Assembly (NCBI GenBank): GCA_947627685.1
Contig: CANQWZ010000001.1
Location: forward strand, 1-52,198
Length of the DNA: 52,198 nt
Source: an uncultured Bacilli bacterium
GTDB taxonomy: Bacteria > Bacillota_I > Bacilli_A > ML615J-28 > CAG-313
Reading direction: 5' to 3'
The notes under the pieces were generated by a model that was not told where the DNA came from, did no database searches, and saw only the letters and a list, made by a program, of their open reading frames with translations. The position numbers were made by a program, and so were the translations under genes. How positions within the stretch are numbered: position 1 is the stretch's first letter; every line of letters starts with the position of its first letter. Shown in pieces: positions 5,055 through 27,348 of the stretch.

Positions 5055-5063
5055 GTAAGTTTT

Positions 5064-6590: not shown

Positions 6591-6603
6591 GAGGAAAAAG
6601 AAT

Positions 6604-8278: not shown

Positions 8279-8290
8279 GGAGGAAAAAAA

Positions 8291-8773: not shown

Positions 8774-8777
8774 AAAA

Positions 8778-8816
8778 AACGTTGTTAACCACTTATATAG
8801 GTTAGCAACGTTTTTT
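8778..8816. terminator. bidirectional terminator between convergent genes
   Basis: AACGTTGTTAACC / GGTTAGCAACGTT stem (one G-U pair), flanked by an A-run and a T-run. Confidence 0.7.
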
Positions 8817-9623: not shown

Positions 9624-11053
9624 TATTCTTCGCTTTCCCCTTTTCTTTTTTCTTTAAGTAAATCTTCTAAGGCAATGCCAGGTTTAGTTAAGTTTTTCTC
9701 ATCTAAAACTTGATCAATAATTTCTTCTGGTAATAATTTTAAATCAAGAATTACTTGCTTTATCGTTTTTTCACTACTGATAGCTTCATTAACAACTTTA
9801 CATGCTATATCATGACCAAGATGAGGTGATAAAGCGGTAATTAAATAAATACTATTATCAATATGGTAATTATTATTATTAGTTTTAAGACCAGTAATTG
9901 CTAAATTATTAAAGGTTCTAGTAGCTCGTCTTAGGGTAGTTATTTGTTCAAATAAACTCATTAAAATAATAGGTTCAAAAACATTTAATTCAAGTTGACC
10001 GGCTTCAATTGCTTTAGTAATTGTTACATCAAGACCAATAACATAAAAACAAACTTGGTTTACCATTTCCGGTACGACAGGGTTATATTTACCAGGCATA
10101 ATTGATGATCCGGGTTGTACATGAGGTAAAATAATTTCACTACTTCCATTAATAGTAGAACTTGCCATAAGTCTTAAATCACTTGCGGTCTTAGAAAGGT
10201 TAGTAGCAAGAAGTTTTAAAACGCTACTAGCAAAACCAAAACTATCAAGATCCCGGGTGGCATCAATTAAATCTTTAGCCGGACGAACTTCCTCACCAGA
10301 AAACTTATTAAGATAAAAAATTACTTTTTTACGATATTTTTCATTAGCATTAAGACTAGTACCGATAGCAGTAGCACCCATATTAACATCTAGAAGAGCA
10401 TCGATTGCCATATCAATGCGCTTCATGTCACGATTTAAAGCATTAGCATAGGCATTAAATTCTTGTCCTAGTCTAATTGGTAAAGCTTCTTGAAGATGGG
10501 TTTTACCCATTTTTATAACATCACTAAATTCAACAGCTTTTTCGAGATAAGCGTTGTATAATTTTTTTAATTCAACTTGTAACTTTTTAAGTTGTTTGAT
10601 GACAGCAATTTTGCCAGCTGTTTGAATAACATCATTAGTAGATTGGCCAAAGTTAACATGATCATTAGGATGAACAAAATTATATACACCCTTTTTACCA
10701 CCCATTAATTCATTAGCCCGATTGGCAATAACTTCATTAGCATTCATATTGATACTAGTACCAGCACCACCTTGAATTAAATCAGTTACGAATTGTCCAT
10801 GCAAACGGCCATTAAGAATTTCATCACAGGCTAGCATAATGGCTTTCCCTACTTTTTCATCAATATTTTGAGCATCAACATTTGCTTTAGCAGCTGCTTT
10901 TTTAACAATAGCTAAAGCTTTAATCATTTGGCGACATATGCCACGTTTAGTAATTTCAAAATTTTCCTTGCCCCTTAAAGTTTCAATACCATAATATGCC
11001 TCAGCTGGGACTTGGCGTTGTCCTAAAAGGTCTGTTTCTATTCGATATCTCAT
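9623..11053 (-). CDS. aspA: aspartate ammonia-lyase
   Basis: YRIETDLLGQRQVPAEAYYGIETLRGKENF N-terminus and the GSSIMPGKYNPVVPE signature. ATG at 11053 with SD GAGGAG is preferred over the longer track ORF. Confidence 0.9.
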   Translation of the reverse strand: MRYRIETDLLGQRQVPAEAYYGIETLRGKENFEITKRGICRQMIKALAIVKKAAAKANVDAQNIDEKVGKAIMLACDEILNGRLHGQFVTDLIQGGAGTSINMNANEVIANRANELMGGKKGVYNFVHPNDHVNFGQSTNDVIQTAGKIAVIKQLKKLQVELKKLYNAYLEKAVEFSDVIKMGKTHLQEALPIRLGQEFNAYANALNRDMKRIDMAIDALLDVNMGATAIGTSLNANEKYRKKVIFYLNKFSGEEVRPAKDLIDATRDLDSFGFASSVLKLLATNLSKTASDLRLMASSTINGSSEIILPHVQPGSSIMPGKYNPVVPEMVNQVCFYVIGLDVTITKAIEAGQLELNVFEPIILMSLFEQITTLRRATRTFNNLAITGLKTNNNNYHIDNSIYLITALSPHLGHDIACKVVNEAISSEKTIKQVILDLKLLPEEIIDQVLDEKNLTKPGIALEDLLKEKRKGESEE

Positions 11054-11157
11054 ATTTGTTCTCCTCAAATAATATAATACTATCATATCATAAAACGCAA
11101 AAAATTTCAATTATATTTGATTATATTTATAATATTTTCGCATAAATTGTATTAAAG

Positions 11158-12426
11158 GTGATTAAGTTGAAACTAGAAATTACAGGGACTGATAAAATAA
11201 AAGGCACCATTAAAATAAGTGGTTCTAAAAATGCCACCTTACCTTTAATGGTTTGTAGCATGCTTACGAAAGATAAAATCATTTTAGATAATGTCCCCTA
11301 CATTAGTGATGTAATCATGATGGCTAATCTTCTTAAAGATATTGGCATTAAAATAAAGTATAATAAGTTAAAAAAACGTCTTACTTTACAACAACTTTAT
11401 ATAAAACCTTTTTTTGATTTCGAAAAGGTACACAAGATAAGAGCATCTTATTATATAATGGGCGCAATGGTTGCTAAAAAAATGAATTTCGTTAGTAGTT
11501 ATCCTGGAGGATGTAGTTTTTCTAAAAGACCAATTGATTATCATTTAGATTTCTTTAAGGCAGTAGGTTATGAAATAACAACTAGTAATGACCAATTAAT
11601 TTTTAATTATAAAAAAGAAGTAAAAGGTGATCTCTTTTATGAATTACCTCAAAAATCAGTAGGCGCAACAATTAACATTATACTAGTTGGTGCCCTTCGT
11701 GATGATACTACCATCATTATTAATCCATCCCTAGAGCCTGAAGTCGAACAAGTCATCTTAGCACTAAATAAAATGTAAGCTAATATTGAAATTGTAAATG
11801 GGATGATTATTATTAAAAAAGCATTACATCTTGGAGGATGTAAATTTAAAGTGGCAAGTGATCGCATCGAAGCAGGTAGTTATATGATGCTTGCAACAGC
11901 GGTAAATGTTAGTAAAATAAAATTAAAAAGAGTATCTTTTACACAAATAGAGGCCATTACTAGTACTATTAAAAAACTAGGTCTTGATGTTAAAATCAAA
12001 AAAGATACCATTAGGCTTAAAAAAAATAAAACTAACGCCCCTCTTAAACAAATAGTAGCAGATGTTTATCCTCATTTTCCTACTGATTTACAACCCATTT
12101 TAACTGTTTGCCTTCTTAAAAGTAGTGGTGTATCTCATCTAAAAGATAATGTTTATCCTAAAAGAATTTCCCATCTAGAAGAAATAAAAAAAGCCGGTGG
12201 TAAGGTTATATTTGATAAAGAAAAAATCATTATTTACCCATCACATCTATCAAAAAATACCTTTTATGCGCATGACTTAAGGTGTGGCTTTGCATGCATT
12301 GTTCTTGCGACAATTGCTAGTGGTAAAAGCATAATAGATAACTTAGAAGTAGTACTAAGGGGCTATGAAAAGTTAACCAAAAAGCTAAAGAAATTAAAAA
12401 TAAAAGTTAAAAAAATAAATGATTAA
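11158..12426 (+). pseudogene. murA: UDP-N-acetylglucosamine 1-carboxyvinyltransferase (MurA) interrupted by one in-frame TAA (11776-11778)
   Basis: ORFs 11158-11778 and 11803-12426 are in the same frame. Read through, the junction is ..EPEVEQVILALNKM*ANIEIVNGMIII.., matching the MurA ..EPE..L..MGA.I.G.. region. Catalytic-type residues are kept: GSKNA, PGGC, PTDLQP, RGYE. Confidence 0.75.
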
Positions 12427-12548
12427 TATTTGCGATTATTTCCTATATATTTTAATGCCAATTACTGTAATATAGCCCAAGATATGTAAATAAAATTAAA
12501 CATTTTATAAATAATTTTTTAAAAAAAGCATTTAATAGACAAAAACGC

Positions 12549-12577
12549 TTGCAAAAAAAACGGAAATTTGGTAAAAT
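12549..12577 (+). promoter_or_regulatory. promoter of the giant ORF
   Basis: TTGCAA (12549-12554), 17-nt spacer, TGg-TAAAAT (12572-12577). SD AGAGGTGA lies 7 nt before ATG 12617. Confidence 0.55.
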
Positions 12578-12616
12578 AAATAGGTAAAGTCATGAAAAAA
12601 AAGAGGTGAAAAAATA

Positions 12617-15600
12617 ATGGATTTTAATCAAATCTTACTACTAGCAGGATTGGGATTACTTCTAGTAGTAGTATTATTTGCACTTTGGGGCTTTCTTGGT
12701 GGTTTAAAAAGAGAGCTTTGGTGCATAGCCGTTTTCATCGTTTTACTAGTTATAACATGGGCTGTTTTTGGAGATGCAGCGACAATTCTGAATGCTAAAG
12801 CAGGGCAATCAATTGCTCAATTGTTGCAACTTCAAAACAGTAACGCTGTCACAGTTTGGGATGCTGTATTAGAATTTGCGAAAGCAAATATCCCTAATGG
12901 TGAGGCCTTACTAGTAGAAGGAAAGGAAACGTACACTCTTTTCTATGGCATTGCTTCCACTGTTTGCCACGCTGTTGGTCTAATAGTTGGTACTATTGCA
13001 ATTTTAATAATTTGTCCTATCATTCGTTTGATTAGTCATTTTGTTATTTTAATCGTTAAAGCAATTAAGAAAAGCAAAGCTAAGAAAAAACCTGCTGTAG
13101 AAACTACAGATGAAGGTGAAGAGAAAAGAGATATGGTTGTTATCCAAAAGGCTAAACAAACCGAAGAGGGTGTCATCGTTAAAGATGAAAACGAAATTGA
13201 AAAAAAGCCAGCTGGCAAAAGACGCTTATGGGGCGCTCTTGCTGGAGCATTAAAAGGCGTATTCGTTATTATCTTAATTTGTGCTCCACTTTCGGGATTA
13301 GCTTCTATCCTTACAACCTTTACACCTGAAACTAAAGAATTAGTTAAAGATGCTGTAAATGGTGAGGTAAAAGTTAATGTTGCCGAGACGGATGATGATC
13401 CAATTGACATGGTATTTGAATTTGCTGATGCCTATAATGATAGTGCACTTGGCAAATTTGCCAATGGCTCTAGTTTCTTCTTTGGTGAATCATTTAGTGA
13501 AAAATTATTTGATCAACTATTTAAATTAAAAACTAGAAATCAAGTTATTTATTTAAGTGATGAGATTAAAGTTTTTATAGAGGCTGCTAATCAGTTAGAA
13601 GGAAATTTAGATTTTACGAAGGTTACAAGAGAACAATATCGTGCCGTTTTAGAAACCTTAAAAGATTCTAAATTACCTGCTGAATTAATGCCTGTAGTTA
13701 TTGAATATGCTTACGAAATGCAAGAAGTCAAAGACTTACTAGCTGAATCAGGTCAAGAATTGAAATTCTTGAATTTACGTTACAATAATTGGAAAGGTGA
13801 TATCGATTTAGTTTTAGATGCTTTAAAAGAAGCATATGATCTAGGTATTTTCCCTGTTGCTGATTTCAATTATTTAACAATGGATCCAGATGAACTTAAG
13901 GATGTAACTACTGCGCTTGGTAAAACTGAATTCATGCATGATGGTTATCCAATTGCTGTTGCTGTTTTATTACACTTAGAACAAGTAAAAGCACAAATTG
14001 GTGATGTTGAAATTAGTGATTTAGGTCAATTAGATATATCTAAAGAACTAGATACAATTGTTGAAATATATCGAACTTTCCAACAACTTGGTATTGAAAC
14101 TTTTGAAGGTTTTGATTTTGATGCTTTTGTTAAAGAAGTATTAGCAGACGATACCAAACTTGATGTTGTATTCGATATGGTTCATAGTATACTTGATTTA
14201 CAAGTTGCAAGAAAAGTAGCAATCCCAGTTGCTTTTGGTTTTGCAAGAACTAATGAAAAGTTCCAAGAGTTATTGAAAAACGCTAATGTAACCGATGACT
14301 TTATGGCATTAGAAACACAAATTACTCTTGATGATTTATCAGTATATGTTGATGCTGTAAAAGTAGCTTTAGATTTAGTTGATTTTAGTGAGTTCCCAAC
14401 CATTAAATTCGATTTCTTCCATTTAGATCCAGATACACTTGATGGTGTAATCGCTAAAATGTTTGACACTAATGTAACTAATAAAGTTATTCCAATTGCG
14501 TTAAAAATAGTTCTAGCTTTAGATGCTGTTAAAAATCAAGTTGGAGATATTTTCGATGATGTTGATTTAGATAATATCATTTGGCGTAATGAATTTGAAA
14601 CATTAGCCGATATCTATCGTGAATTCTTAAAATTAGGTTTTGAATCAACTGAAGATTTTAAAGTTGATACAATTGATTTAATTCAATCATTAATTGAAGA
14701 TGAAGCTAAATATGATGCTGTATTACAAATCTTAACATTAATTGTTGATACACAATTATATGATAGACTTGCTGTACCTTCAATGCAACATTTCTTAGAT
14801 AAATTTATTACTGATAAAGCATATGATGCATTTAGTAATATTGTTGATTTATCAAGCATTACAAAAGATGAATGGAAAGAAGATTTAGCTACTATTTTAG
14901 ATAGCGTTAAATTAATCAATGAATTAAAAGTTTTAGATAACCTTAATCCATTTGATTATAAAGCTTTAGACATTACATCACATGAAGGTGTTGAAAAAAT
15001 TAAAAAATTAATTTCTAACATTTTCAAACTTAATATTTTAGGTGATGATGAATTAAAAACGGCTTTATTAGTAGCTTCTATTAAACAATTTGGCTGGACT
15101 AGTATTTCTGATGATATTATTAATGGTATCGAATCTTGGAATATTGATTGGAGCAATGAAGAAAATGTATTGTTACAATTAGTAGATGTTTATGAAAATG
15201 TTGTTAACCTTGAAGAATTTGATATCAAGAATCTTGACCAAGTTGATTGGGTAGCATTATTAGATAGTGATGAATTCTTAAATTATGTAGTAGATGCCCT
15301 AGAAACAGTTGTTGAATCTGATATCGTTCTTGAAGTTTTACCAGGTTTACTTGATAAATATTTATTACCAAGACTTGAAGGTATTGAAAGTGTAGATGAT
15401 GAAACATTATTCAAAGATATGTTCAGTCATCTTCAATCTGAAGAATTAGTTAATGAACTTATTAAGTTAATTGATGTAGTAAGAGATGCTGTAGATATGC
15501 ATTTACTTGGTGCTAAATCAGTAAGTGATATTGACTTTAGTAATACTGATGCTTTAAAAGGTATTATTAGTGGTATCTTTGATTCTAAATTAATTCAAGG

Positions 15601-18600
15601 CTTTGAAGGCAGAATTATTCGTATCCTTCTAAAGGTTTCTAAAGTTTTAGATATTGAAAAGGATACACCATTATATCAAGAACTTGTTGAGTTAGATTAT
15701 ACAGGTGAAAAAGAAGCATTACTTGCTTTCGTTGACGCAATCGCACCTGCCTTAAAAGATCCTAACTTCACTATTTTAGATGAAGATGGTAAGTTTAATG
15801 TTAACTTAAAATTCTGGCAAGAAAATAAAAATGCTAAAGCCTTACTTGATGGTTTCAAAGCTTTACTTGGTTCATATCCAGATAATGATGAAGCTTCTTC
15901 TAAATTGATTGAAGCACTACTTCCAAGTATTTATGATAAATATGTAGAAGATAAGAATTTAATCCCTGAAGATTTCATCGCAATCGTTGATGAATTAGAC
16001 ATTGCAAATGCAAGTGGTGCTACTTTAACTGCTGCTATTCGCCGTTTATTATATGTTGCTGATAGAGTTATTGATCTTAACGCTTTAGCACTTATTGATA
16101 ATGGAGATATGGAAATTAGCACAATTAAAGCTGTAAATGCATATAACGATATCCTTGATGCTTTACATGACATCGAATTATTTAGAGGTCATGAAGCTAA
16201 AGTTCTTGCATGGGGCGTAAATTATCTTGCTAAAACATTAAAAGTTGAAATCGATGAAGTAACTGATGAATTTAATAATGTTGAATGGCTTGCTCAAAAA
16301 GAAGTATATAAAGACATTATTAATGATGCTGCAACTTTCTTAAGAAAGAACAATATCTTCACTTATAAAGATTTATTAGCATTTGTTACTGATAAGAAAT
16401 ATAATACTCCAGAATTTATTACTTCTAGTAATGCTAGTGATTTATTAGATATTTTAGATAAATTAGTAGATGTACAAGTAATTGATGCTATCGTTCCGCT
16501 TGCAACAAAATATGGTATTAATTTACTTAATGATAAAGCAACAATTGATTTAAGTTATGTTCTTGATTTCACAAATGCTGAAATTAATCATGATTTCCAT
16601 AAGATAATTGCTACTCTTCATAAATTAGTAGAGGATGCTAATATTGTTGAATACTACAATACTAAATTCGATGGTGAAATGCCACTTCCTGATGAAGAAG
16701 TTGTAAAATCATTAGTTGATGATATTTTCGAATTAAATATTGTTGCTAAAGCTGATGGCAGACTTGCTAAAGTAATTTATGACAAAGTTATGACATTACC
16801 TAATATGGATAAAGAGTTCTTAACTTTTGATGATTTCAAATTCTTTGTTGTTGATTGGAATAGTGAAAAAGAAGTATTAAAAGAATTAATCGGTTTAGTA
16901 TATGATTTCGCTGAAGTTAACAATATCGAAACTATGACAAGTGTTCAAAGATTCTTCAAAGAAAAATGGTATAATGAGCCAGCAATCTTAAGAGATGAAA
17001 CCGGTCATATCGTTGCTAATGCTGTAAGAGTATTAAGTAATTCACAAATTGTTTACAATGTTATTGTTAAATTATATACTAAAGGTATTGATACTTTAAA
17101 TGACAATAAACAATTCAAATTACCATTTGATTTATCTTACTTAAGAAGTATGTCAGCTCCTGATTTAGTATCTGACTTAAATGTTTTAGCTGATATTTTA
17201 GATAAAGTTGTTGATTTCGGTATTATGACATATTTAGCTGAAGGCGATATGCGTGATATGGATCTTAACTTATTAGCTGAAGCTATTGAAAAATTAGCTG
17301 AAACTAAGATCATGCAACAAAATGGCAAGAGATTATTTGGTGATTTATATAACTATGGTTTAACTTATGCCGAAAACGTAACTCATGGTAAATTTGTTTT
17401 ATCTGAAGAACAAATTGATATGATTGATTATCAACATGAAATATACGTACTTGCTGACGTAGTTAGATCATTACAAGGCTTAATCGATGCTAAGAACATT
17501 GATTATCTATCAGATATTTTTGATTTAGTTGATGATTTAAGAATCAATGCAACATACAAAAATAAAGATTTCTATGATGAAGCAACATATGAAGCACTTG
17601 CTGAAGTTGCAAGAGAAGTATCTAATTTACAATTATTAGAAATTGCTGCTCCACAACTTATCAATCATGTTTTAAAATTTGCTGAACAAAATAAAGTAGA
17701 CTTATCATTTATTGATACTGATGAATATACTGGTGTAATGTTTGTTGAAGATATTAGAACCGTTCTTGACATAGCTAAATATGGTTATGACTTTGGCGTA
17801 ATTGATTATATTTTTGATAAGACATTATATAGCCTTGAAGCTGATGTATTATGTGATATGTTAGACTATGTTCCAGAATTAAATCTTGTTAAATTATATT
17901 TCAATAAATTAGTTTATACAGGAGTTAAAGCTGGTCTTGATGCTTTAAAGGTTGATGTTAGTGTTACTGAAGAAATGTTTGCTGATATCGATGCTAGAGC
18001 TGAAGTTAAAGAATTACAAGATGTCGTTATGACATTAAAAGCATTATTAGTAGAAAAAGATGTTATTACTTTAGATAATCTTCTTGACTTTGTAAAAGGT
18101 AACTATCCTGCTAATAATTATAAGAGTGAAGCTTTCTATGATGTAGAAACTGGCACTGCTTTAGAAAATATTTTAACTGAAGTTGTAGATTTAGAAACAG
18201 TAAAAGTATTATTACCATCATTATTAAATTATGGTGTTGATAAAGTTACAAAAGTTGATTTATCATTCTTGAAAGATTCCTTCACTAAAGAACAATTAGC
18301 AAGCGATGTTAAAAACGTGGCTAAATTGATTGTTCCTGCTATTGAAGCTGAACTTGTAGGAGTTATTTTTGGTAAAGATATCAATGAAGTAGAATTACAT
18401 TTTGATACTTATCATGAAATCTTAGATGCTATTAAGAATCTTAATGTTGTTGCTATGAAATATGGTGAATTTATTAGCCTTGGCGTTAACGAAGCATACA
18501 AGAAGTTAAATTCTGCTGAAAGAGTTGATGCTAGTATGTTTAGTGGCGTAGTCCTTGAAGATGAAGTTGCTGCGTTGCATAATGCTTTAAATTCAGCTGA

Positions 18601-21600
18601 AGAATTAGCACAAACCTTAGCTGTTAATAGTGTATATGACGTAAGAAAAGTAGTTACTGATCTTGTTCAAAACAAAGGTTATAAAGATACTAAATACGTT
18701 AACAAAGAAAATGCTCATTTAGCACTTGATGTTGTTGATAGTCTACTTGATTTAGAAACTGTTAAAGTGATTCTTCCTGGTGCAACAAGCCATGGTACAG
18801 AATATTTATATCAAGTAAAGAATATTGATGTTCGTTTCTTAGCTGAAGAACTTACTGGTATTGAATTAGTTGAAGATGTAGATAGTATCGTTTTAACTTT
18901 AAGAGATTTAGTAGATTATGGCATGCTTGAATTTGTTTTACTTGATGAAGCAATTGATTTATCAGATATTACACCTATTAATGATGCTATTGATAGACTT
19001 GCTCATTTAAATATTTTAGATGGACATCATGCAGAAGTTGTTTATAGCGTATTAGATAAACTTGGTATTGATAGAACTGGTATTGATTTATCAGATGTTA
19101 ATTTAGATGATGAAATCGCATCAGTACAAAATATTTTAGATAAAGCTAAAGATGTTTTAGCAAAAGAAGGTTTAAATACTCTTTCTGCTATAAAGAATTT
19201 AAAAGTTGATTATAAGAAATATGTAAAACTTAGTGATGATACATATGATTATATTGACGTATTTGTTCCACTTATTAAAGCTCTTGCAGCTGATCAACTT
19301 GTTGAAAAATTAGTTCTTCCTGTATCTGAAAAATACTTAGCTAAAGTAGATCCTAAATATAATGGCTTAGTAGATATCTATAACATATATGAAGATGGTA
19401 AACAAGTTACAAGTGATCTTGTTGATTTAGCTGATCTTTTAGTAGAATTAAAGAATCTTGATTTTGTTTCATTCGTTTTACATGATGATAACTATCCATA
19501 TGAAAAAACTGAAGTTGTATCACGCATTATTAAATTAGTATTTAATCTAAATTACTTCAACGTAAGCGATACAAGATTAAATGAATTTATCAAAGCTATT
19601 GATCAATTTGTAAGTGCTGATTTAAGTAGTATTGACGCAACCGGTGTAGATTTAAAAGCTGATGCTGATAAATTTGCAAAGATGTATGAATATTTATCAG
19701 TTGTTCTATTGGATGAAAACTTCCCTATCAAAAATAAAAATGACGTTAAACAAGTTAAATTTGAAGCAAAATTATTCAAATCTGGTCTTGTTCAAGAAAA
19801 TTTAGTTGACGCAATGCTTGAGTTTATGGAAACTACAGTATTTGATAAAGTAGGTCCACAACTTGTAATGCTTACATTCCCACTAGTTGAAAAACATGCT
19901 AAAGATTATTATGATGTTTTAGATTTAGCTAACGTTGATGTTGATATGGTAAGCCATGACTTAACATTAGTTCAAGATATTCTAAAGAGATTAGATAATA
20001 TTGACTTAGTTAAATTAGATGAAACAGGCGAATACTTATGTCAAGATACTAATGATTTAATTAATTTAGTAATTGATAAGATGACTGAATCACAAATCTT
20101 AGCTAACCATGGTAATGATTTATTTGATCTTGTTATGAATAAATATGTAAATGGTAAGACAATTGGTAGTGCAGTTATTCCAACTGGTACAATTACTTCA
20201 ACAGGCGTTGATTTTGTTAAAGATAGTAAAGTATACAAACAAATTGTTGATGAAGTATTTGCTTACTTGAATAATGAAAGCATTAATACAATTAAAGAGT
20301 TTAAAGATTTCATAAATGACTTTAAGACAAGTACTGCTACTTTAAAAGAAGTAGTTGTTAATAGAATTCTTGCTGACGAAAAGAATATGGAAACAATTGC
20401 TACTATCATTGATTTAGTTACACAATTAACAATGGTAGAAGTAAATGGTTTATCAGTTATGAATAATATTGTAAATCCATTACTTCCAAGCAACATTGCT
20501 CCAGCCTTTGATTTTGCTCAATATACTGATCAAGAATTCGCTGATGACTTAAAATCAGTTGCTAAGTTATTAAGACAAATGAACGAATTTGGTATTTCAG
20601 CCTTTGTTCGTAATGAAGATATTAATTATGATCAAGCCGATCTTGTTAAAAAAATGATTGATAACGTTGTATCTACTAATTACTTAAGATATAATTTATA
20701 TCAATTCATTGATTTCGTTGACGAACTTAACGTTTTACCAATTAAACTTCAAGACTTAAAAACAAATGAATTCGATTACAAAGGTGATGCTCTAATCATC
20801 GGTGAAGTTTATGAAGAAATGCTTCCATTCTTAACATCAGAAGCTAACCCACTTACTAATAAAGCTGCTATTAAAGATTTAATCGTTAATAAGCATGTTA
20901 ATATTAGTATTAGACAAGCTCTTAAAGAAAACAAAGCTGCAGTACTTAATGCTTATGATGAATTAGTAGAAATGTCTGCTCTTCCTCTATTATTCAATGA
21001 AATGATAGACTTTGGTAGAAGAAGTGTTCCTGAAAGATATCAAAGCGTATTTGATGCTATGAAACTTGACTTATCAATGGCTGAAAAGAAAGCTGATATC
21101 AAAGCTACTTCAACTATTCTTAGAATGGTAGTTGATCTAGAATTATACACACTTGCTACACAAAAAGATTATAACTTCGCAGGCGATGTAATTTCTACTT
21201 TAAATAACAAAGAAACATCAATGAGTAAGATTGATTTAATTAACATGTTAGTTGAAGAAGTATACTCATTAAATGTATTACAAAACCGCGATAAATTCGT
21301 TATAGGTATTTTGAATGCTCTTGATGCTGATACTACAGAAGTTGATTTAAGTGGTGTAGATTGGGATAATGAACTTGACCAATTACAAGTAATTATCAAA
21401 GATACATTACAAGTATTATTACAATATGACCTTGTTTCAGTTCAAGCTGTTAAAGATTATATTTTAGATTTAAGAAACTTAAAGACATATAATGCTATCG
21501 TAGATGAATTAAAAGCGATTTGGCATAAAGTAGAAATCAGTCTAAGTGTTGATGTTTTAGATGCTTTAGATGCATCTGATGTATTTGATCAAATTTTTAA

Positions 21601-24600
21601 ACCTCTTTACAATAAATATATATTCACTAAATTACCTGCTAATTTAGTTGAACTTGGTGATTTAAGTGAATACACCGTTGCTAATTTAAGCGAAGATATG
21701 CATGCTCTTGCAACAAGTGCTCACGCCGTATTAACAATTAGACGTTTACCTGGTGCATTTAAAGATTATGCAGAAACAGATGAATGTGTTATCCCAGCAC
21801 AAACTATAATTAAATCATTATTCGCATTAAATTATGTACAATTAAAGAAACAAGCAATAGTTAATACAATTAATAATTATCGTCCAAGTCTAAAATTAGG
21901 TAGTCTTGATATTACTAATATTGATACTGCTTTAGATGGTGAAATTATTGCTTCAAAGGCAAAAGATATTCTAACAATCTTAGCTCAAACTGATCTTGGC
22001 GAAAATAGAAGCATTAGCCAATTAGGTAATACTCATCTTATGACATCTGTTATTGATTTATATAATGGTTTACTTGAAACACAATTATATGAAGAAGTAT
22101 CAGTATGGGCATTTAGAGCATTTGCTCAACCTGCTATGGAGGGTATTGAATACTTCGATAAACTTGTATTTACTAATGAAAAAATTCATTTAATTGGTAT
22201 CAAATTAGGTGAAACATTAGATGCTATGCTTGATATGGGCTTCTTCAGTAATGATGGTGTTGATTTCACAAATAAATCTAATACCGATCGTTTATTCGTT
22301 CTTGCAACCGATATATTCGAACCTACGGGAAGCTTCCAAAAGATAATAGATAAATTTAAAGCTAATATGGCTGAATTTGGTATTATTCCACTTTCTTATG
22401 CTAATATTGAAACAAGACCTGAATTAAGTGCTATTAAGAATGCAGCTTCAACCATCGTATCATTTGCTAAAACTTATGCTAATAAAGTTCAAGCTAATCG
22501 TTCAGTTCTTGCTGATAGTACATTCCAAGCTGATTTAACTAATTGCTTTGCTAAATTATTTGAATCTAAACTTGCTGTACAACTTGTAATGCCTATCTTT
22601 AGTGGTTCTTTAAGAATCATGACTAAGGATATCGTTGAACTTAACTTATTAGATGAAGTTACTTATGATGAATTCATGAGTCAATTCTTACCAGATGTAT
22701 ATGATTTAATTGCTGCTGTTGATAAATTAGGTCTATTAAATAGTAAGGTTAAACTTAATGATAGTGATGCTATCTTAAAAGTAGCAGATATCTTAATTCA
22801 TGCTGATTCATTCAAAGATTATACTAGTCAACTTGTTAAATTTGCAATGATTTTTGTAGGCGTTGATGCTAAGAATATTGACTTTGATAAAGTTAACTGG
22901 AATAATGAATATGATTACCTTGATGCTACTTTAGCAGTACTTAAGGAACCATTAAAGAAAGTTAACTTCTCTGATCGTAAGACTTACTTAGGTAGTGAAT
23001 TCTTAAATGCTTTAGCTGATGCTATGCCTGAATTTAAAGATTCTGAACTTATTACTTTAGTAGGTCGTCAATTAGCTGAATTTGTCGCAAATAGAATGGG
23101 TGAAGGTCGTTATGACGTATATGTAAATCATCTATTTGACGCAAGTTATACTGATGAAAAATTAAGAGCTGACTATAATGCATTACCTGATATTTTAAGA
23201 AAAGTAGCTGAATTAGACTTCTTCAACAATAAAGACATTACAAATGATAAATTTGCAATTGTTGCTGACTTACTTGAAGCAATGCTTACTCTTAACTATT
23301 CAAAAGGTATGGAAGTAGAGTTATTAGAAACTTGCTTCAAACATACTGATGTTCTTGATAGTTATGAATTAGACTTCAATGATGTAAAAGATTGGTCTAA
23401 AGAAAGCAAAGCTTTCCCTGAAGTATTACGTAAATTAGCCGCATTAGGTACAATCTCTGACTTCGATGTTGAAAAGAAAGATAATCAAATTAAGTTCCTT
23501 GATTTAGTTGATGCTATGAGCGAATCAGAAATTGGTCGCATCTTATTCCCTCAAGTTTATAAGAGTGATATAGCTCCTAAACTTGGTGAAGATTATGAAG
23601 ACTTAATTGATATTGATACTCTTGATCCAACTGAATGGCGTAGTGAATTTGAAAACTTATTCGAAATCTACAACAAAGAAAAAGCTTTCGAAAAGAAATA
23701 TGGTCCACTTGATGAAGTAGATATGAAGCAACGTGATCCTCAAGTAGACTTTGTAGACTTAGTTAAGACAATGGCTAAATCTAAGACAGGTCAAAAATTA
23801 TTCAAAGATATATATGCTAAACATATTGAAAAACCACTTTATGATCAAGTTAATGATCAATTAGGTACTGAATATCAAGATAACGATCTAATTGATTTAA
23901 CTAAAGATCCAAGTGAATGGGCAAATGAATTTAGTACTTTATTTGAAATCTTCAATAGTGCTCAAGAATTAGGTGATTTAACTAACTTAAGCATAAAAGA
24001 TAAAACTACTCAAGAGAAGTTTATTGACTTAGTTAAGACAATGGCTGGTTCTGATAAAGAAGAAGATAAGAAGAATGGTTCTGAAATGGGTCAAAAGTTA
24101 TTCAAAGATATATATGCTAAACATATCAAGGAACAACTTGAAACACAAATTGAAGAACAAGTAGGTAAGAAGCATACTGATTTAATTGAATTAGGTGCTG
24201 ACTCTACTAAGTGGTATACTGAATTCGAAAACTTATTCGATATTTATAATAGTGTAGAAGACTTAGGTGATCTAGCAAATCTTGACATGAAGAATAAAGA
24301 TATGCAAAACAAATTCGTTGCCTTAGTTGATAAGATGTCAAAAACTAAGCTTGGTCAAACATTATTACCAGATATTTATGAAGAAAAGATCGAAGCAAGA
24401 TTAGGTGAAGATTACGATGGTATCATTAATTTCGAAGATAAAGCTTTCACACCAGATATGTGGGCTAATGAATTTAAAAAATTATTTGGTATCTATGATG
24501 TATTAGTAAAAACTGAGTTTGGTAAAGATACTACTATTACAGAAGCAATTGCTATAATGCAAGGCTTATTCGGTAAGAATAAAGCTGATAAAGCAAATGG

Positions 24601-25114
24601 TATCTTTGCTATAACCAAGAATGCTACAAGCTATGAAACTTGGGTTAAGAAGATGCTTGGCAATAATATCGTTGCTTTACCTAGTGGATCTGAAATCGAT
24701 ACTGAATCAGAACGCAACTGGGAAGATGAAGCATATGCATTAATGGGTATTCTTGATGCTATGCAAGTATTTGCAACTGATGGCGGCTTTGATTATTCAA
24801 AAGCTTACGAAACAACTGATAAAGATGCATTCAAGAATGTATTGATGAACATTAATAGTTGTGTTGCAACACGCGCAAGTATGACAGAATTTATCTATAA
24901 TACTATTCATTTAGAAGGAAATGAAACATTAAAGACTTCTTTAGATACTGCTAGTGAAACAAAAGATTTAATGACAACCTTCTATAGTGATTACGAAAAG
25001 TATGAAACAGATAAGACTTATTATAATGCTTCATTCTGGACTGAAGATAATATTGATGCTTTAGCTACTGTTATTACAGGGTATAATTTATCAAAAGCAT
25101 CTCCAAGACCATAA
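12617..25114 (+). CDS. giant (4165 aa) membrane-anchored acidic repeat protein; CvpA-like N-terminal TM domain; no family recognised for the remainder
   Basis: Uninterrupted ORF with its own promoter and terminator. The first ~230 aa contain four hydrophobic segments (LFALWGFLGGLKRELWCIAVFIVLL.. resembles CvpA) and a K/R-rich loop. The rest is D/E/L/V/K-rich with periodic motifs. Confidence 0.9.
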   Translation: MDFNQILLLAGLGLLLVVVLFALWGFLGGLKRELWCIAVFIVLLVITWAVFGDAATILNAKAGQSIAQLLQLQNSNAVTVWDAVLEFAKANIPNGEALLVEGKETYTLFYGIASTVCHAVGLIVGTIAILIICPIIRLISHFVILIVKAIKKSKAKKKPAVETTDEGEEKRDMVVIQKAKQTEEGVIVKDENEIEKKPAGKRRLWGALAGALKGVFVIILICAPLSGLASILTTFTPETKELVKDAVNGEVKVNVAETDDDPIDMVFEFADAYNDSALGKFANGSSFFFGESFSEKLFDQLFKLKTRNQVIYLSDEIKVFIEAANQLEGNLDFTKVTREQYRAVLETLKDSKLPAELMPVVIEYAYEMQEVKDLLAESGQELKFLNLRYNNWKGDIDLVLDALKEAYDLGIFPVADFNYLTMDPDELKDVTTALGKTEFMHDGYPIAVAVLLHLEQVKAQIGDVEISDLGQLDISKELDTIVEIYRTFQQLGIETFEGFDFDAFVKEVLADDTKLDVVFDMVHSILDLQVARKVAIPVAFGFARTNEKFQELLKNANVTDDFMALETQITLDDLSVYVDAVKVALDLVDFSEFPTIKFDFFHLDPDTLDGVIAKMFDTNVTNKVIPIALKIVLALDAVKNQVGDIFDDVDLDNIIWRNEFETLADIYREFLKLGFESTEDFKVDTIDLIQSLIEDEAKYDAVLQILTLIVDTQLYDRLAVPSMQHFLDKFITDKAYDAFSNIVDLSSITKDEWKEDLATILDSVKLINELKVLDNLNPFDYKALDITSHEGVEKIKKLISNIFKLNILGDDELKTALLVASIKQFGWTSISDDIINGIESWNIDWSNEENVLLQLVDVYENVVNLEEFDIKNLDQVDWVALLDSDEFLNYVVDALETVVESDIVLEVLPGLLDKYLLPRLEGIESVDDETLFKDMFSHLQSEELVNELIKLIDVVRDAVDMHLLGAKSVSDIDFSNTDALKGIISGIFDSKLIQGFEGRIIRILLKVSKVLDIEKDTPLYQELVELDYTGEKEALLAFVDAIAPALKDPNFTILDEDGKFNVNLKFWQENKNAKALLDGFKALLGSYPDNDEASSKLIEALLPSIYDKYVEDKNLIPEDFIAIVDELDIANASGATLTAAIRRLLYVADRVIDLNALALIDNGDMEISTIKAVNAYNDILDALHDIELFRGHEAKVLAWGVNYLAKTLKVEIDEVTDEFNNVEWLAQKEVYKDIINDAATFLRKNNIFTYKDLLAFVTDKKYNTPEFITSSNASDLLDILDKLVDVQVIDAIVPLATKYGINLLNDKATIDLSYVLDFTNAEINHDFHKIIATLHKLVEDANIVEYYNTKFDGEMPLPDEEVVKSLVDDIFELNIVAKADGRLAKVIYDKVMTLPNMDKEFLTFDDFKFFVVDWNSEKEVLKELIGLVYDFAEVNNIETMTSVQRFFKEKWYNEPAILRDETGHIVANAVRVLSNSQIVYNVIVKLYTKGIDTLNDNKQFKLPFDLSYLRSMSAPDLVSDLNVLADILDKVVDFGIMTYLAEGDMRDMDLNLLAEAIEKLAETKIMQQNGKRLFGDLYNYGLTYAENVTHGKFVLSEEQIDMIDYQHEIYVLADVVRSLQGLIDAKNIDYLSDIFDLVDDLRINATYKNKDFYDEATYEALAEVAREVSNLQLLEIAAPQLINHVLKFAEQNKVDLSFIDTDEYTGVMFVEDIRTVLDIAKYGYDFGVIDYIFDKTLYSLEADVLCDMLDYVPELNLVKLYFNKLVYTGVKAGLDALKVDVSVTEEMFADIDARAEVKELQDVVMTLKALLVEKDVITLDNLLDFVKGNYPANNYKSEAFYDVETGTALENILTEVVDLETVKVLLPSLLNYGVDKVTKVDLSFLKDSFTKEQLASDVKNVAKLIVPAIEAELVGVIFGKDINEVELHFDTYHEILDAIKNLNVVAMKYGEFISLGVNEAYKKLNSAERVDASMFSGVVLEDEVAALHNALNSAEELAQTLAVNSVYDVRKVVTDLVQNKGYKDTKYVNKENAHLALDVVDSLLDLETVKVILPGATSHGTEYLYQVKNIDVRFLAEELTGIELVEDVDSIVLTLRDLVDYGMLEFVLLDEAIDLSDITPINDAIDRLAHLNILDGHHAEVVYSVLDKLGIDRTGIDLSDVNLDDEIASVQNILDKAKDVLAKEGLNTLSAIKNLKVDYKKYVKLSDDTYDYIDVFVPLIKALAADQLVEKLVLPVSEKYLAKVDPKYNGLVDIYNIYEDGKQVTSDLVDLADLLVELKNLDFVSFVLHDDNYPYEKTEVVSRIIKLVFNLNYFNVSDTRLNEFIKAIDQFVSADLSSIDATGVDLKADADKFAKMYEYLSVVLLDENFPIKNKNDVKQVKFEAKLFKSGLVQENLVDAMLEFMETTVFDKVGPQLVMLTFPLVEKHAKDYYDVLDLANVDVDMVSHDLTLVQDILKRLDNIDLVKLDETGEYLCQDTNDLINLVIDKMTESQILANHGNDLFDLVMNKYVNGKTIGSAVIPTGTITSTGVDFVKDSKVYKQIVDEVFAYLNNESINTIKEFKDFINDFKTSTATLKEVVVNRILADEKNMETIATIIDLVTQLTMVEVNGLSVMNNIVNPLLPSNIAPAFDFAQYTDQEFADDLKSVAKLLRQMNEFGISAFVRNEDINYDQADLVKKMIDNVVSTNYLRYNLYQFIDFVDELNVLPIKLQDLKTNEFDYKGDALIIGEVYEEMLPFLTSEANPLTNKAAIKDLIVNKHVNISIRQALKENKAAVLNAYDELVEMSALPLLFNEMIDFGRRSVPERYQSVFDAMKLDLSMAEKKADIKATSTILRMVVDLELYTLATQKDYNFAGDVISTLNNKETSMSKIDLINMLVEEVYSLNVLQNRDKFVIGILNALDADTTEVDLSGVDWDNELDQLQVIIKDTLQVLLQYDLVSVQAVKDYILDLRNLKTYNAIVDELKAIWHKVEISLSVDVLDALDASDVFDQIFKPLYNKYIFTKLPANLVELGDLSEYTVANLSEDMHALATSAHAVLTIRRLPGAFKDYAETDECVIPAQTIIKSLFALNYVQLKKQAIVNTINNYRPSLKLGSLDITNIDTALDGEIIASKAKDILTILAQTDLGENRSISQLGNTHLMTSVIDLYNGLLETQLYEEVSVWAFRAFAQPAMEGIEYFDKLVFTNEKIHLIGIKLGETLDAMLDMGFFSNDGVDFTNKSNTDRLFVLATDIFEPTGSFQKIIDKFKANMAEFGIIPLSYANIETRPELSAIKNAASTIVSFAKTYANKVQANRSVLADSTFQADLTNCFAKLFESKLAVQLVMPIFSGSLRIMTKDIVELNLLDEVTYDEFMSQFLPDVYDLIAAVDKLGLLNSKVKLNDSDAILKVADILIHADSFKDYTSQLVKFAMIFVGVDAKNIDFDKVNWNNEYDYLDATLAVLKEPLKKVNFSDRKTYLGSEFLNALADAMPEFKDSELITLVGRQLAEFVANRMGEGRYDVYVNHLFDASYTDEKLRADYNALPDILRKVAELDFFNNKDITNDKFAIVADLLEAMLTLNYSKGMEVELLETCFKHTDVLDSYELDFNDVKDWSKESKAFPEVLRKLAALGTISDFDVEKKDNQIKFLDLVDAMSESEIGRILFPQVYKSDIAPKLGEDYEDLIDIDTLDPTEWRSEFENLFEIYNKEKAFEKKYGPLDEVDMKQRDPQVDFVDLVKTMAKSKTGQKLFKDIYAKHIEKPLYDQVNDQLGTEYQDNDLIDLTKDPSEWANEFSTLFEIFNSAQELGDLTNLSIKDKTTQEKFIDLVKTMAGSDKEEDKKNGSEMGQKLFKDIYAKHIKEQLETQIEEQVGKKHTDLIELGADSTKWYTEFENLFDIYNSVEDLGDLANLDMKNKDMQNKFVALVDKMSKTKLGQTLLPDIYEEKIEARLGEDYDGIINFEDKAFTPDMWANEFKKLFGIYDVLVKTEFGKDTTITEAIAIMQGLFGKNKADKANGIFAITKNATSYETWVKKMLGNNIVALPSGSEIDTESERNWEDEAYALMGILDAMQVFATDGGFDYSKAYETTDKDAFKNVLMNINSCVATRASMTEFIYNTIHLEGNETLKTSLDTASETKDLMTTFYSDYEKYETDKTYYNASFWTEDNIDALATVITGYNLSKASPRP
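16286..21926 (+). repeat. degenerate in-frame repeat modules, about 183-195 aa (549-585 nt) period, inside the giant ORF
   Basis: The register marker D-[W/Y/F/L/A/T]-x-x-E/D-x3-L falls at 16286, 16856, 17429, 17993, 18554, 19103, 19652, 20213, 20777, 21362 and 21926. A second helix with a conserved Pro lies about 70-74 aa later in several units (Pro codons at 16496, 17651, 18215, 18776, 19319). Confidence 0.7.
23492..24520 (+). repeat. four tandem 85-98 aa repeats near the C-terminus of the giant ORF
   Basis: Units start with KFLDLVDAM (23492), DFVDLVKTM (23747), KFIDLVKTM (24017) and KFVALVDKM (24311). Each ends with a D-P/S-x-x-W-x-x-E-F-x-x-L-F-x-I-[YF] motif. Units 2 and 3 share identical DNA runs (gacttagttaagacaatggct; ttattcaaagatatatatgctaaacatat). 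Confidence 0.85.
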
Positions 25115-25128
25115 GGCTTAACAATTTA

Positions 25129-25157
25129 GGATAAGAGAAATTCTCTTATCCTTTTTG
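25129..25157 (+). terminator. intrinsic terminator of the giant ORF
   Basis: GGATAAGAG / CTCTTATCC 9-bp stem, 5-nt loop, then TTTTTG. Confidence 0.8.
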
Positions 25158-25170
25158 TATTGTTAATGGT

Positions 25171-25261: not shown

Positions 25262-25480
25262 ATGCGTGAAGGAATACATCCAAAATATCAAAAAGTAACA
25301 GTAACTTGTGTATCATGTGGTAATACTTTTGAAACAGGTTCTACAAAAGCAGAAATTCGTGTTGATACTTGTTCAAAATGTCATCCTTTTTATACAGGTG
25401 AACAAAAATTTGTTCAAGCAGCTGGTAGAATTGATAAATTCAATAAGCGTGCAAGTCTTGCTCAAAATAAACAAAAGTAA
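25262..25480 (+). CDS. rpmE: 50S ribosomal protein L31 (type A, zinc-binding)
   Basis: [28 protein letters not shown]...[10 protein letters not shown], with a CxxC...CxxC pattern. 72 aa. Confidence 0.97.
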
Positions 25481-25481
25481 G

Positions 25482-25513
25482 AGTATATATGATAATTCAT
25501 ATATACTTTTTTC
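25482..25513 (+). terminator. intrinsic terminator of rpmE
   Basis: AGTATATATG / CATATATACT stem, 6-nt loop, then T6. Confidence 0.75.
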
Positions 25514-25578
25514 TTATTTTGCAATATCTATTCTTTTTAGTTACAATTATGATATAATAAATAAAAAAGGTGATTATG

Positions 25579-27348
25579 ATGCTTGTAACCCTTAACAATG
25601 TTGATGTTAGATATCTTGATAAAAATATTTTTTCTAATGCTTCATTTACTATTAATGAAAAAGATAAAATTGGTATAGTTGGCCCTAATGGTATTGGTAA
25701 AACAACTTTATTAAAATTAATAGTTGGTATAATTGATCCTTATAAGGGAGAAATCTTTAGAAAAAAAGATTTGAAAATAGCCTATTTATCGCAAGATATT
25801 AATTTAGATGAAAATAAAACCATTTGGGAGGAAATTCTTAGTAAAACCAAAGCAGAAAATACTTTTTCAGTAAAAAGCATTCTTTCAAAACTTGGTTTAA
25901 ATGATTATGATGAAAAAATACAAACCTTATCAGGAGGGAAGAAAAGAAGATTAGCCTTAGCTACTACGCTTCTTAACCAAAGTGATTTGTTAATTTTAGA
26001 TGAACCAACCAATCATTTAGATATTTGGATGATTAACTGGTTAGAACAATTTTTAATTAAATGGCATAAGGCTTTACTACTTGTTACCCATGATCGATAT
26101 TTTTTAGAACGAATTACTAATAAAACTCTTGATATTGAAAATGGTAACCTTTATTTATATAATGTAAATTATACCTCTTACTTACCCCTTAAAGAAGAAC
26201 GTTTTGATGCTATGCTTGCTAGTAGTAGAAAACTGAAGGCGCTTTTTAAGAAAGAAGCTGTTTGGGCTAAGTTAAACCCTCAGGCTCGTTCTACTAAATC
26301 AAAAGAACGTCTAATGCGTTTTAAAACTTTAGAAATAGAGTTATCTAGATTAGATACATCTATTAGCCAAATAAGCCACGAAATGGCCTTTTCTTCGCAT
26401 TTTTCTAGACTTGGTGGGAAAACTATCATCATTGATAAGATATCTTTGGGCTTTGATGATAAAATTTTGTTTAAAGACTTTTCCTATATAATTACAAAGT
26501 ATGATCGTTTAGGAATAGTAGGCGAAAATGGCAGTGGTAAAACCAGCCTTTTTAAGACTATTTTAGGACAAATTTTACCAAATAGTGGTAGTATTACTAT
26601 AGGTGATACCGTTAAAATAGGTTACTTAAAACAAGAAGATAAATTGCTAAATACGAATAAAACCGTCATAAATTATTTAAAAGAATTTGGCGGTCATCTT
26701 GATACTATGAATGGCACGATAGATATAAATAATCTTTTAGAAGATTTTTTCTTTGATAAAACTAAAAAATACATGCCTATATCAACTCTTTCTGGTGGAG
26801 AAAAAAGAAGATTACAACTATTAAGTATTCTAATTGGTAATCCTAATATTTTGTTTTTAGATGAACCTACCAATGATTTAGATATATATACTATTGAACA
26901 ATTAGAAAACTATTTAGAAAACTTTAAAGGTGCTGTAGTAGTTATTTCCCATGATCGATATTTTTTAGATAAAGTCATTAATCATGCTTTTATTTTAGAA
27001 GATAAACACTTCATTGAATATACGGGACTTATTAGTGAATATGTAAAAAATAAAGAGCTTCCTAAAAACAAAGAAGCATCAAAAATAAAAAAGGAAAGCC
27101 CTAGTATTCCTTTCTTTACTTCAAAAGAGAAAAAAGAATTTAATGAACTTGAAACAAACATCATGGCTATGGAAGCAAAGCTTAAAAAACTAAAAGATGA
27201 TACATATCTATGTGGAACTGATTACCAAAAATTAATGGCTTTAGATAAAGAAATCAAAGAGTTTCAAGAATCAATTGATAAGATGTATGAAAGATATGAA
27301 TATTTAAATAATATAAACGATGAAATACAAAAGTATAAAAAATATTAA
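25579..27348 (+). CDS. ABC-F family ATPase (two ABC cassettes, no TM domain, C-terminal coiled coil)
   Basis: Walker A motifs GPNGIGKTT and GENGSGKTS. Signatures LSGGKKRRL and LSGGEKRRL. Walker B motifs LILDEPTNHLD and LFLDEPTNDLD. Start chosen 5 nt after SD AAAGGTGA; alternatives are 25570 and 25576. Confidence 0.9.
   Translation: MLVTLNNVDVRYLDKNIFSNASFTINEKDKIGIVGPNGIGKTTLLKLIVGIIDPYKGEIFRKKDLKIAYLSQDINLDENKTIWEEILSKTKAENTFSVKSILSKLGLNDYDEKIQTLSGGKKRRLALATTLLNQSDLLILDEPTNHLDIWMINWLEQFLIKWHKALLLVTHDRYFLERITNKTLDIENGNLYLYNVNYTSYLPLKEERFDAMLASSRKLKALFKKEAVWAKLNPQARSTKSKERLMRFKTLEIELSRLDTSISQISHEMAFSSHFSRLGGKTIIIDKISLGFDDKILFKDFSYIITKYDRLGIVGENGSGKTSLFKTILGQILPNSGSITIGDTVKIGYLKQEDKLLNTNKTVINYLKEFGGHLDTMNGTIDINNLLEDFFFDKTKKYMPISTLSGGEKRRLQLLSILIGNPNILFLDEPTNDLDIYTIEQLENYLENFKGAVVVISHDRYFLDKVINHAFILEDKHFIEYTGLISEYVKNKELPKNKEASKIKKESPSIPFFTSKEKKEFNELETNIMAMEAKLKKLKDDTYLCGTDYQKLMALDKEIKEFQESIDKMYERYEYLNNINDEIQKYKKY

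Follow-up and report, generated by a model that had tools for sequence, protein, structure and literature searches.

The stretch of DNA analysed here (the window: 52,198 nucleotides (nt) of contig CANQWZ010000001.1, from the assembly GCA_947627685.1 of an uncultured Bacilli bacterium) carries at 12617-25114 a single gene for a giant protein of 4165 amino acids (aa). We believe, at a probability of roughly 0.6, that this is a surface protein held in the membrane by a polytopic anchor, and that its remainder forms a very long acidic fibre of ~20 tandem helical modules on the cell surface. The gene is a real one under selection, and it belongs to a clade-restricted family with small paralogues and conserved synteny. 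As far as comparisons of sequence and modelled fold can tell, its repeat module belongs to no described fold or family in the libraries searched. The topology of the protein, the shape and length of the fibre, and its function are inferred. A giant repetitive surface fibre is a known kind of structure; the module, its fusion to this anchor and the lineage in which the two occur together are new.

Results

A repetitive acidic tail in one open frame

A note made earlier from the letters of this DNA (the original prediction) had claimed an uninterrupted frame of 4165 codons, in which an N-terminal membrane anchor is followed by acidic repeats in a ~560-nt register. The frame indeed runs unbroken on the forward strand from an ATG start to a TAA stop. 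The parts of the gene and the signals flanking it are as follows, with the evidence for each.

12549..12577 (+): promoter-like site TTGCAA, 17 nt, TG-TAAAAT; 9/12 match, sites of this kind not above chance
12603..12608 (+): Shine-Dalgarno sequence GAGGTG, 8 nt before the ATG
12617..25114 (+): giant open reading frame (ORF), 4165 codons + TAA; open frame, open orthologues in 23 species, ratio of nonsynonymous to synonymous substitution rates (dN/dS) 0.2-0.5 against the closest relative, locus L003
12617..13324 (+): predicted N-terminal membrane anchor, aa 1-236; hydropathy, AlphaFold, Lys/Arg bias, sub-threshold Colicin_V matches, hhalign against E. coli CvpA
13325..13468 (+): conserved acidic juxtamembrane segment, aa 237-284; tiles of aa 181-420 match 23/23 full-length relatives
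13469..21913 (+): 15 consecutive long units of 182-195 aa each, aa 285-3099; unit hidden Markov model (HMM), self-BLAST, AlphaFold of units 8-9
21914..23410 (+): degenerate or shortened units, aa 3100-3598; unit HMM, spacing ~158-162 aa where detectable
23411..24517 (+): four half-length repeats, aa 3599-3967; self-BLAST E down to 1e-32, unit HMM
24518..25111 (+): C-terminal tip, aa 3968-4165; least conserved part
25128..25162 (+): terminator-like hairpin and T-run; 1 found against 0.1 expected

Periodicity was tested by BLAST of tiles of the protein against the whole, counting off-diagonal high-scoring segment pairs at E<=1e-3 and using five shuffled sequences as control. There were 34 such pairs against 0 in each of the five shuffles, and 68% of the offsets fell within 15 aa of a multiple of 188, as compared to 16% by chance. 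An HMM iterated from one unit matched 15 consecutive units over aa 285-3099 with starts 182-195 aa apart, a unit of ~188 aa, so that the proposed register is borne out by self-comparison. All 11 of the nucleotide positions at which a marker motif had been listed are unit starts, the one at nt 21926 opening a unit that the HMM does not score. These starts read [IVF]-[DEVN]-[WYFLA/T]-x-x-[EDQ]; most begin with [IV]-D-[WY]-x-x-E, which is not the case for unit 1. The second conserved element that had been described, a Pro-containing helix, lies ~75 aa into the unit and was recovered in 12 of the 15 units. Mutual identity among the units is 13-29%.

Beyond aa 3099 the HMM matches at aa 3275-3377 and 3422-3561, with a spacing of 158-162 aa, and four short repeats of ~40% mutual identity follow at aa 3599-3967 with a period of 94-103 aa. 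The shortening of the period toward the C-terminus that had been noticed is therefore real, the values given for it (~165 and 85-98 aa) being approximate. The short repeats (23411-24517) match only HMM positions 2-95, which is the N-terminal half of the long unit; the array thus ends in truncated units, not in a different repeat.

The protein is acidic as expected, with 728 Asp and Glu against 407 Lys and Arg. The tail has a net charge of -8.3 per 100 aa, about -325 in total, and an Asp content of 10.7% as against 6.3% in the neighbouring proteins. A motif scan of the giant protein confirmed the absence of Walker A, HExxH and LPxTG, and found LPxT[GASN], YSIRK and CxxC absent as well.

Conservation and selection across the family

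Scanning one genome for each GTDB species gave 23 loci, all in gut metagenome-assembled genomes (MAGs) labelled Bacilli, Mollicutes, Acholeplasmatales, 'Staphylococcus sp. CAG:324', Staphylococcaceae or Erysipelotrichaceae, the best of them 73% identical over the first 469 aa. In all 23 other species the frame is open to the end of the fetched DNA (2783-3984 codons, 27-33% G+C), and independent assemblies contain copies of identical length (five of 3908 aa, four of 3989 aa, and 5201 aa on seven contigs). An exhaustive search of 1.84 billion representative proteins with a profile built from the 15 units put the family at only 107 proteins (clusters) at E<=1e-3. The 23 full-length members among them, of 3857-6731 aa, all start with an MDFNxILL anchor and carry 10-26 long units. 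A further 25 shorter members of 683-2923 aa, some of them possibly fragments, start with a three- or four-helix anchor, and many have G-[FL]-x-[RK]-G, a motif characteristic of CvpA.

Orthologous units are 40-67% identical between species, far above neighbouring units of one protein, from which it follows that the units are old and individually maintained. All 23 members match over aa 1-420 and 840-1080, the stretches in which conservation peaks, the tiles of aa 181-420 scoring highest. It is lowest in the C-terminal 200 aa, which only 1-6 of the 23 relatives match, and the tips fall into three clade-like clusters and two singletons. With its closest relative, L003, the window gene is colinear over 3790 codons at 60% identity. 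The dN/dS values in this comparison are 0.20 for the anchor region, 0.25-0.52 for the tail and 0.21-0.23 for three neighbouring genes; the tail value is ~1.5-2 times that of the neighbouring genes, the ratios being rough since dS is ~0.8, close to saturation. A further control, AspA, was discarded: its pairwise alignment gave 9% amino-acid identity where tblastn gave 85%, so that the two slices were presumably mismatched or out of frame.

Two of the loci call for a remark. L001 (an ENA assembly) has the orthologous giant gene annotated as a pair of ORFs, of 655 aa (4680-6647) and 3616 aa (6655-16647), with a stop or frameshift 8 nt wide between them. Locus L008 (JAMPDF010000003.1), from a 'Prevotella sp.' MAG, has 32% G+C and shares gene order and near-identical coordinates with L007 from an Anaeroplasma MAG, and its Prevotella label is probably a binning or naming error.

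Modelled fold of the unit and the search for relatives

An AlphaFold model of units 8-9, built on a 7-row alignment of non-overlapping unit pairs, is all-alpha with ~8-10 helices per unit (predicted local distance difference test score (pLDDT) 74.5, predicted template-modelling score (pTM) 0.68). Foldseek comparison of this two-unit model with PDB and BFVD gave a best E of 0.8 and template-modelling scores of <=0.21 (PDB <=0.19). Entries for the giant staphylococcal proteins Ebh and Embp were absent among the 50 PDB matches listed, and we regard the talin rod, PACSIN, proteasome-lid and tape-measure entries as noise only.

By sequence, the whole protein has no FIVAR, GA or DUF1542 match at E<=1 in Pfam and NCBIfam, and the same holds for two other full-length members in Pfam. 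PHROGs and PADLOC gave no match to the giant protein, PDB gave none with the unit profile or the whole protein, and the C-terminal tip is without a Pfam match. Weak Pfam matches to HEPN (E=0.0016, unit 8 only), PoNi_N, RepB_C, DUF3861, Tetraspanin and Wzy_C were judged to be chance, because each occurs in a single place, lies below cut-off and is not repeated across units. Cluster look-ups, and a search started from the small relative most similar to CvpA, returned no functional name for any family member, the sole label being 'hypothetical protein', and no precomputed Pfam domains. The earlier impression that the repeat fits no characterised family thus agrees with the profile and fold searches, all of them empty.

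The N-terminal anchor and its resemblance to CvpA

Hydropathy places four strong hydrophobic segments in aa 1-236, in line with the four originally assigned to the first ~230 aa, and finds none at the C-terminus and none of that strength elsewhere. In the predicted layout, the first transmembrane segment (TM1, ~aa 3-27) is followed by a short basic loop (KRE), TM2 (~aa 32-51), an outer loop of ~55 aa, TM3 (~aa 104-156) as one long helix, and TM4 (~aa 202-232), which contains G-x3-G-x3-G. The Lys/Arg-rich loop said to precede the last helix is present as loop 3 (aa 149-205), with 16 Lys/Arg, and is modelled as disordered. In the AlphaFold model of the anchor (mf41001fae58c, from an 8-row alignment; pLDDT 62, low confidence), TM3 is one continuous helix over aa 104-156; by hydropathy, the hydrophobic TM3 region is ~41 aa long.

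The original prediction had likened the anchor to the CvpA family. The Pfam Colicin_V profile (PF02674) matches aa 1-260 of the window protein at E=0.0097 and 16.3 bits, against a cut-off of 29.3 bits. On orthologue N-termini it gives E 2e-4 to 0.4 in 3 of 7, the best relative reaching 21.7 bits, also below cut-off, and the other relatives 11-20 bits. On three relatives of 1085-1700 aa the values are 7e-4 to 9e-3 (profile positions 1-125 of 144), and on a small paralogue, L001_815, E=0.0033 (positions 1-118). Sub-threshold colinear matches were thus seen in 8 of the 15 family sequences scanned (the window protein and seven relatives), all colinear within profile positions 1-125 of 144, and Colicin_V is the recurrent best Pfam match of the anchor. 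The proposed likeness therefore holds in that the matches are recurrent and colinear, but they are weak.

An hhalign comparison of 15 family N-termini with E. coli CvpA paired AGKRRLWGALAGALKG with SGTDRVLGVCFGALRG over 24 columns (P=0.005, probability 7%). This 24-residue pairing covers only the G-x3-G-x3-G stretch entering TM4, with the glycines kept and the Asp of the CvpA TDR motif opposite Lys/Arg (Arg in the pairing given). CvpA has been described as having a conserved GxxxG motif and a near-invariant Asp before TM4 (bioRxiv 10.1101/2020.09.25.314492). Foldseek comparison of the anchor model with PDB gave nothing below E=0.8. Cleavage by signal peptidase after TM4 was considered and found unsupported, the -1 position not being kept as a small residue among the orthologues.

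The two proteins would share four TM helices, a short basic G-x-[KR]-[KR] loop after TM1 (predicted here), the G-x3-G-x3-G entering TM4, and a predicted extracytoplasmic C-terminal extension of variable length. They differ in that the scores here do not exceed 21.7 bits and so stay short of the family threshold, in the insertion here of the ~55-aa outer loop and a ~55-aa basic cytoplasmic loop, in the residue opposite the TDR Asp, and in size, E. coli CvpA having 162 aa and the giant protein 3900 extra residues. We take the anchor to be CvpA-like and probably a remote relative of CvpA, below the level of family membership by profile score.

On which side of the membrane the tail would lie

Across 24 family members, Lys/Arg residues average 15.9 in loops 1 and 3 together, against 4.0 in the N-terminus and loop 2, and loop 1 holds 2-3 of them in every one of the 24. 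The 60 residues following TM4 are acidic (on average 4.1 Lys/Arg against 11.1 Asp/Glu), as are aa 233-292 of the window protein, the 60 aa past its TM4 core (4 against 13). The C-terminus of CvpA has been predicted to be periplasmic and is variable in length (bioRxiv 10.1101/2020.09.25.314492). Because of this Lys/Arg distribution and the predicted placement of the CvpA C-terminus, we predict four spans with both termini outside the cell, and hence an extracellular tail. The original prediction had reached the same topology from the positive-inside rule, and has now gained support from the family-wide bias, the single-helix model of TM3 and the CvpA literature, all of it predictive in kind.

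In the 5201-aa relative (P0008), the TM3-TM4 cytoplasmic loop (aa 147-266) has 121 aa, about twice the length in other members, and is rich in Thr, Glu, Gln and Pro; the length of loop 3 is therefore free to vary.

Discussion

In the mechanism that we favour, aa 1 to ~236 would insert as four TM helices, the N-terminus lying outside and the two basic loops, 1 and 3, on the cytoplasmic side. TM4, lying behind the KKPAGKRR stretch, would then be oriented like an uncleaved signal-anchor, and the Sec machinery would thread the ~3900-residue acidic tail to the outside. The exported tail would fold into ~20 all-alpha modules (15 full ~188-aa units, a few degenerate ones and four half-units), making up an elongated fibre. 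By analogy with the Embp F-repeat, in which 170 aa span ~7 nm (PMC7587433), similar packing would give it a length on the order of 100-150 nm. Rooted in the membrane, such a fibre would cross a wall that is thin or reduced and reach out past it. Among uncultured Bacilli, the orders RFN20 and ML615J-28 are reported to have no sortases; for novel families of RFN20, RF39 and ML615J-28, the standard synthesis of teichoic acids is predicted to be missing (PMC10868615). The conserved, membrane-proximal modules would attach the protein to the envelope or act as a scaffold there; the faster-diverging part, made up of the distal modules and the tip, would face the gut environment, where adhesion, spacing or shielding, and cation binding are possible roles.

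Our best reading by analogy is that the giant protein would work most like Ebh of Staphylococcus aureus and Embp of S. epidermidis, being built from unrelated parts and not a member of their family. Those proteins, of the megadalton class, are membrane-anchored rods of tandem helical bundles with dozens of all-alpha modules of 125-170 aa; the rods are predicted or shown to be rigid, and that of Ebh is estimated at ~320 nm (PMC7587433). The likeness lies in a giant Bacilli protein held by membrane-spanning segments, not by sortase, and carrying tandem helical modules (~20 here). The differences are that their FIVAR, GA and DUF1542 domains were not found here, nor any PDB match by sequence or Foldseek; that they have an N-terminal YSIRK signal and a C-terminal TM segment, whereas the protein described here has neither and starts with a four-helix CvpA-like anchor; and that their unit consists of two connected three-helix bundles (PDB 2DGJ, 6GV8), which the two-unit model does not match. 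In addition, the unit here is ~188 aa with ~8-10 modelled helices, the tail is strongly acidic, and the hosts are uncultured gut Bacilli. Fibrillar adhesins of the LPXTG type such as SasG likewise have a long tandem-repeat stalk, one that would project the distal region from the cell. They are anchored to the wall and not to the membrane, and the signal peptide, LPXTG motif, C-terminal hydrophobic segment and beta-rich Ig-like or G5-E modules that go with them are all missing here; the related lineages are, as mentioned, reported to be without sortases (PMC10868615).

Several considerations weigh against a surface fibre. The outside location of the tail is a matter of prediction, and the anchor model that bears on it is of low confidence. 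The shape of the fibre is extrapolated from a model of two units on a 7-row alignment. Pfam and NCBIfam searches over the full length of the protein brought up no domain of an adhesin, a lectin, a wall-binding protein or an enzyme. The low Cys content of the tail (0.15%, against 0.99% in cytoplasmic neighbour proteins) counts for export, but the argument is a weak one: the window encodes two more proteins with signal peptides, presumably exported, and these are not poor in Cys.

The original prediction had offered both a surface coat and a membrane-skeleton element. The tail might, as the latter would have it, lie inside as a membrane-tethered submembrane scaffold, comparable to the giant helical cytoskeletal proteins of wall-less Mollicutes. 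A repeat that is all-alpha, acidic and rich in Leu, in a protein that has no cleavable signal peptide, would suit such a role, the related lineages include predicted peptidoglycan-deficient members (PMC10868615), and the long TM3 region (~41 aa) could in principle be a hairpin, which would bring the tail inside. We consider this unlikely. With TM3 as a hairpin, loop 3 and its 14-18 Lys/Arg would come to lie outside, contrary to the bias in all 24 members, and the low-confidence AlphaFold model shows a single unbroken TM3 helix; for anchors of the CvpA type, an outside C-terminus is predicted; a variable distal end and a tail evolving faster than the neighbouring genes are atypical of internal scaffolds; and murA and an Amidase_2 gene are kept adjacent in related loci, suggesting walled cells. 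The evidence thus leans toward the surface. On the outside, the protein could also be not an adhesin but a stand-in for lipoteichoic acid, an exported, membrane-anchored polyanion that buffers cations and organises the envelope after the loss of teichoic acids and sortase. The charge and Asp content of the tail, the conservation of the membrane-proximal modules, and the report of related orders without sortases (RFN20, ML615J-28), with standard synthesis of wall and lipoteichoic acids predicted absent in novel families (PMC10868615), fit this idea, as does the link of E. coli CvpA to envelope stress and bile resistance (bioRxiv 10.1101/2020.09.25.314492). The case is purely circumstantial, however, and a folded 188-aa module is a costly charge carrier, so that we would give the idea rather small odds. 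Equally doubtful to us is a more far-reaching proposal, that the family constitutes a replacement surface layer in gut Bacilli possibly devoid of sortases and teichoic acids: a ~100-nm membrane-rooted polyanionic fibre of a new helical module, which would have arisen from an envelope protein of the CvpA type as its units multiplied, and which would take over cation-buffering, spacing and attachment roles that in ordinary Gram-positive bacteria fall to lipoteichoic acid and wall-anchored proteins.

Giant repetitive proteins with a poorly conserved C-terminus, here the last ~200 aa, bring to mind polymorphic toxins or contact-dependent effectors, in which a filament delivers a variable C-terminal toxin domain. 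It would be most surprising if the giant protein were one. Neither the toxin or pre-toxin domain nor the downstream immunity gene of the CdiA, LXG or Rhs types was found: no toxin, pre-toxin or immunity domain was detected in the window protein (Pfam, NCBIfam, PADLOC) or in two further full-length members (Pfam), the tips form three clade-wise clusters and are not shuffled, and the downstream gene, behind a terminator, is rpmE. As for an assembly artefact or a decaying pseudogene, the metagenome-type source of the contig, the split of the gene into 655 and 3616 aa in one related assembly and an in-frame stop in the adjoining murA might raise the suspicion. No tandem repeats were detected at the DNA level in the giant gene, and because there are none to collapse or expand and the units are 13-29% identical, such an assembly error is unlikely; moreover, the frame is open in 23 other species at 27-33% G+C, the same lengths recur in independent assemblies, and the gene is colinear with that of L003 over 3790 codons with dN/dS <1 throughout. 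The artefact, which the original prediction had itself raised as a caution, is effectively refuted, as is the pseudogene.

The uncultured, reduced-genome Bacilli in question are common in human and animal guts, and their cell surface is almost wholly uncharacterised. Within a small genome, ~12.5 kb are given over to the giant gene, which is unannotated in the libraries searched, intact in 24 species or more, and expanded to 6731 aa in the family. For these reasons its product probably plays a large part in the encounters of these cells with the host, with phages and with their neighbours. If the surface-fibre reading is true, a CvpA-type polytopic anchor joined to a new ~188-aa helical module would mean that giant surface fibres can be built and held in place by a new route, and the members, grading from 700 to 6700 aa, would offer a case of a small envelope protein grown giant by unit amplification. 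Giant repetitive surface proteins are not surprising in themselves, and the functional role in this case is one that we infer.

Flanking signals and neighbouring genes

The GAGGTG read from the sequence at 12603..12608 (+), 8 nt 5' of the ATG, agrees with the strong Shine-Dalgarno sequence claimed for the giant gene. The terminator claimed downstream is also there, as an intrinsic-terminator-like hairpin at 25128-25152 that has a stem of 11 bp, a loop of 3 nt and a T-run behind it (one such hairpin, where 0.1 would be expected). The extended -10 promoter at 12549-12577 had a more mixed outcome: the site exists, with TTGCAA, a 17-nt spacer and TAAAAT with a TG extension (9 of 12 positions), but promoter-like sites near the giant gene, in an AT-rich region, are not above chance expectation (4 found against 2.1). 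A scan of 12300-12700, which takes in the end of murA (~130 nt) and all of the gap between the two genes, found no terminator-like hairpin. With a good terminator, a weak promoter match and no hairpin upstream, the claim that the gene is monocistronic is plausible. The window as a whole has ~29% G+C and uses the standard code, TAA ending 26 of 30 long ORFs and TGG encoding Trp.

The surroundings are those of an ordinary chromosome, with genes for TrkA/TrkH, Amidase_2, pseudouridine synthases and M55, M29 and M18 peptidases, among others, as well as aspartase/fumarase, murA, rpmE, an ABC-F protein and TspO. Most related loci share the gene order aspartase/fumarase (opposite strand), murA, giant gene, and both murA and the Amidase_2 gene stay beside the giant gene. 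Between murA and the giant gene, 19 of the 23 loci of the genome scan (L003-L025), and also L001 (435-2882) and L002 (4967-7477), have one or two genes of ~815-836 aa. These are paralogues, with a CvpA-like anchor and about three family units (unit HMM E=1.7e-11 for L002_836). The window and L003 lack a small paralogue at that position.

In the window, murA (EPSP_synthase family, 11158-12426) is split in two ORFs by an in-frame TAA at 11776-11778, whereas it is intact in 19 related loci; the stop is either a strain-specific pseudogene mutation or a sequencing error. Past the terminator of the giant gene, rpmE (ribosomal protein L31, 72 aa, 25262-25480) has a strong promoter-like site of its own, the near-consensus TTGACT-17-TATAAT with TG (11/12), and a 95-aa ORF in another frame, at 25308-25595, looks spurious. 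Farther away, 46266-49361 encodes a 1031-aa protein with a signal-like N-terminus and GLUG motifs that matches the N-terminal region of M26 IgA1-specific metallopeptidases, by which it is a candidate for another host-facing surface or secreted protein. At the contig start, 375-2351 encodes a 658-aa protein with HAAS and DUF4097 (toastrack) domains.

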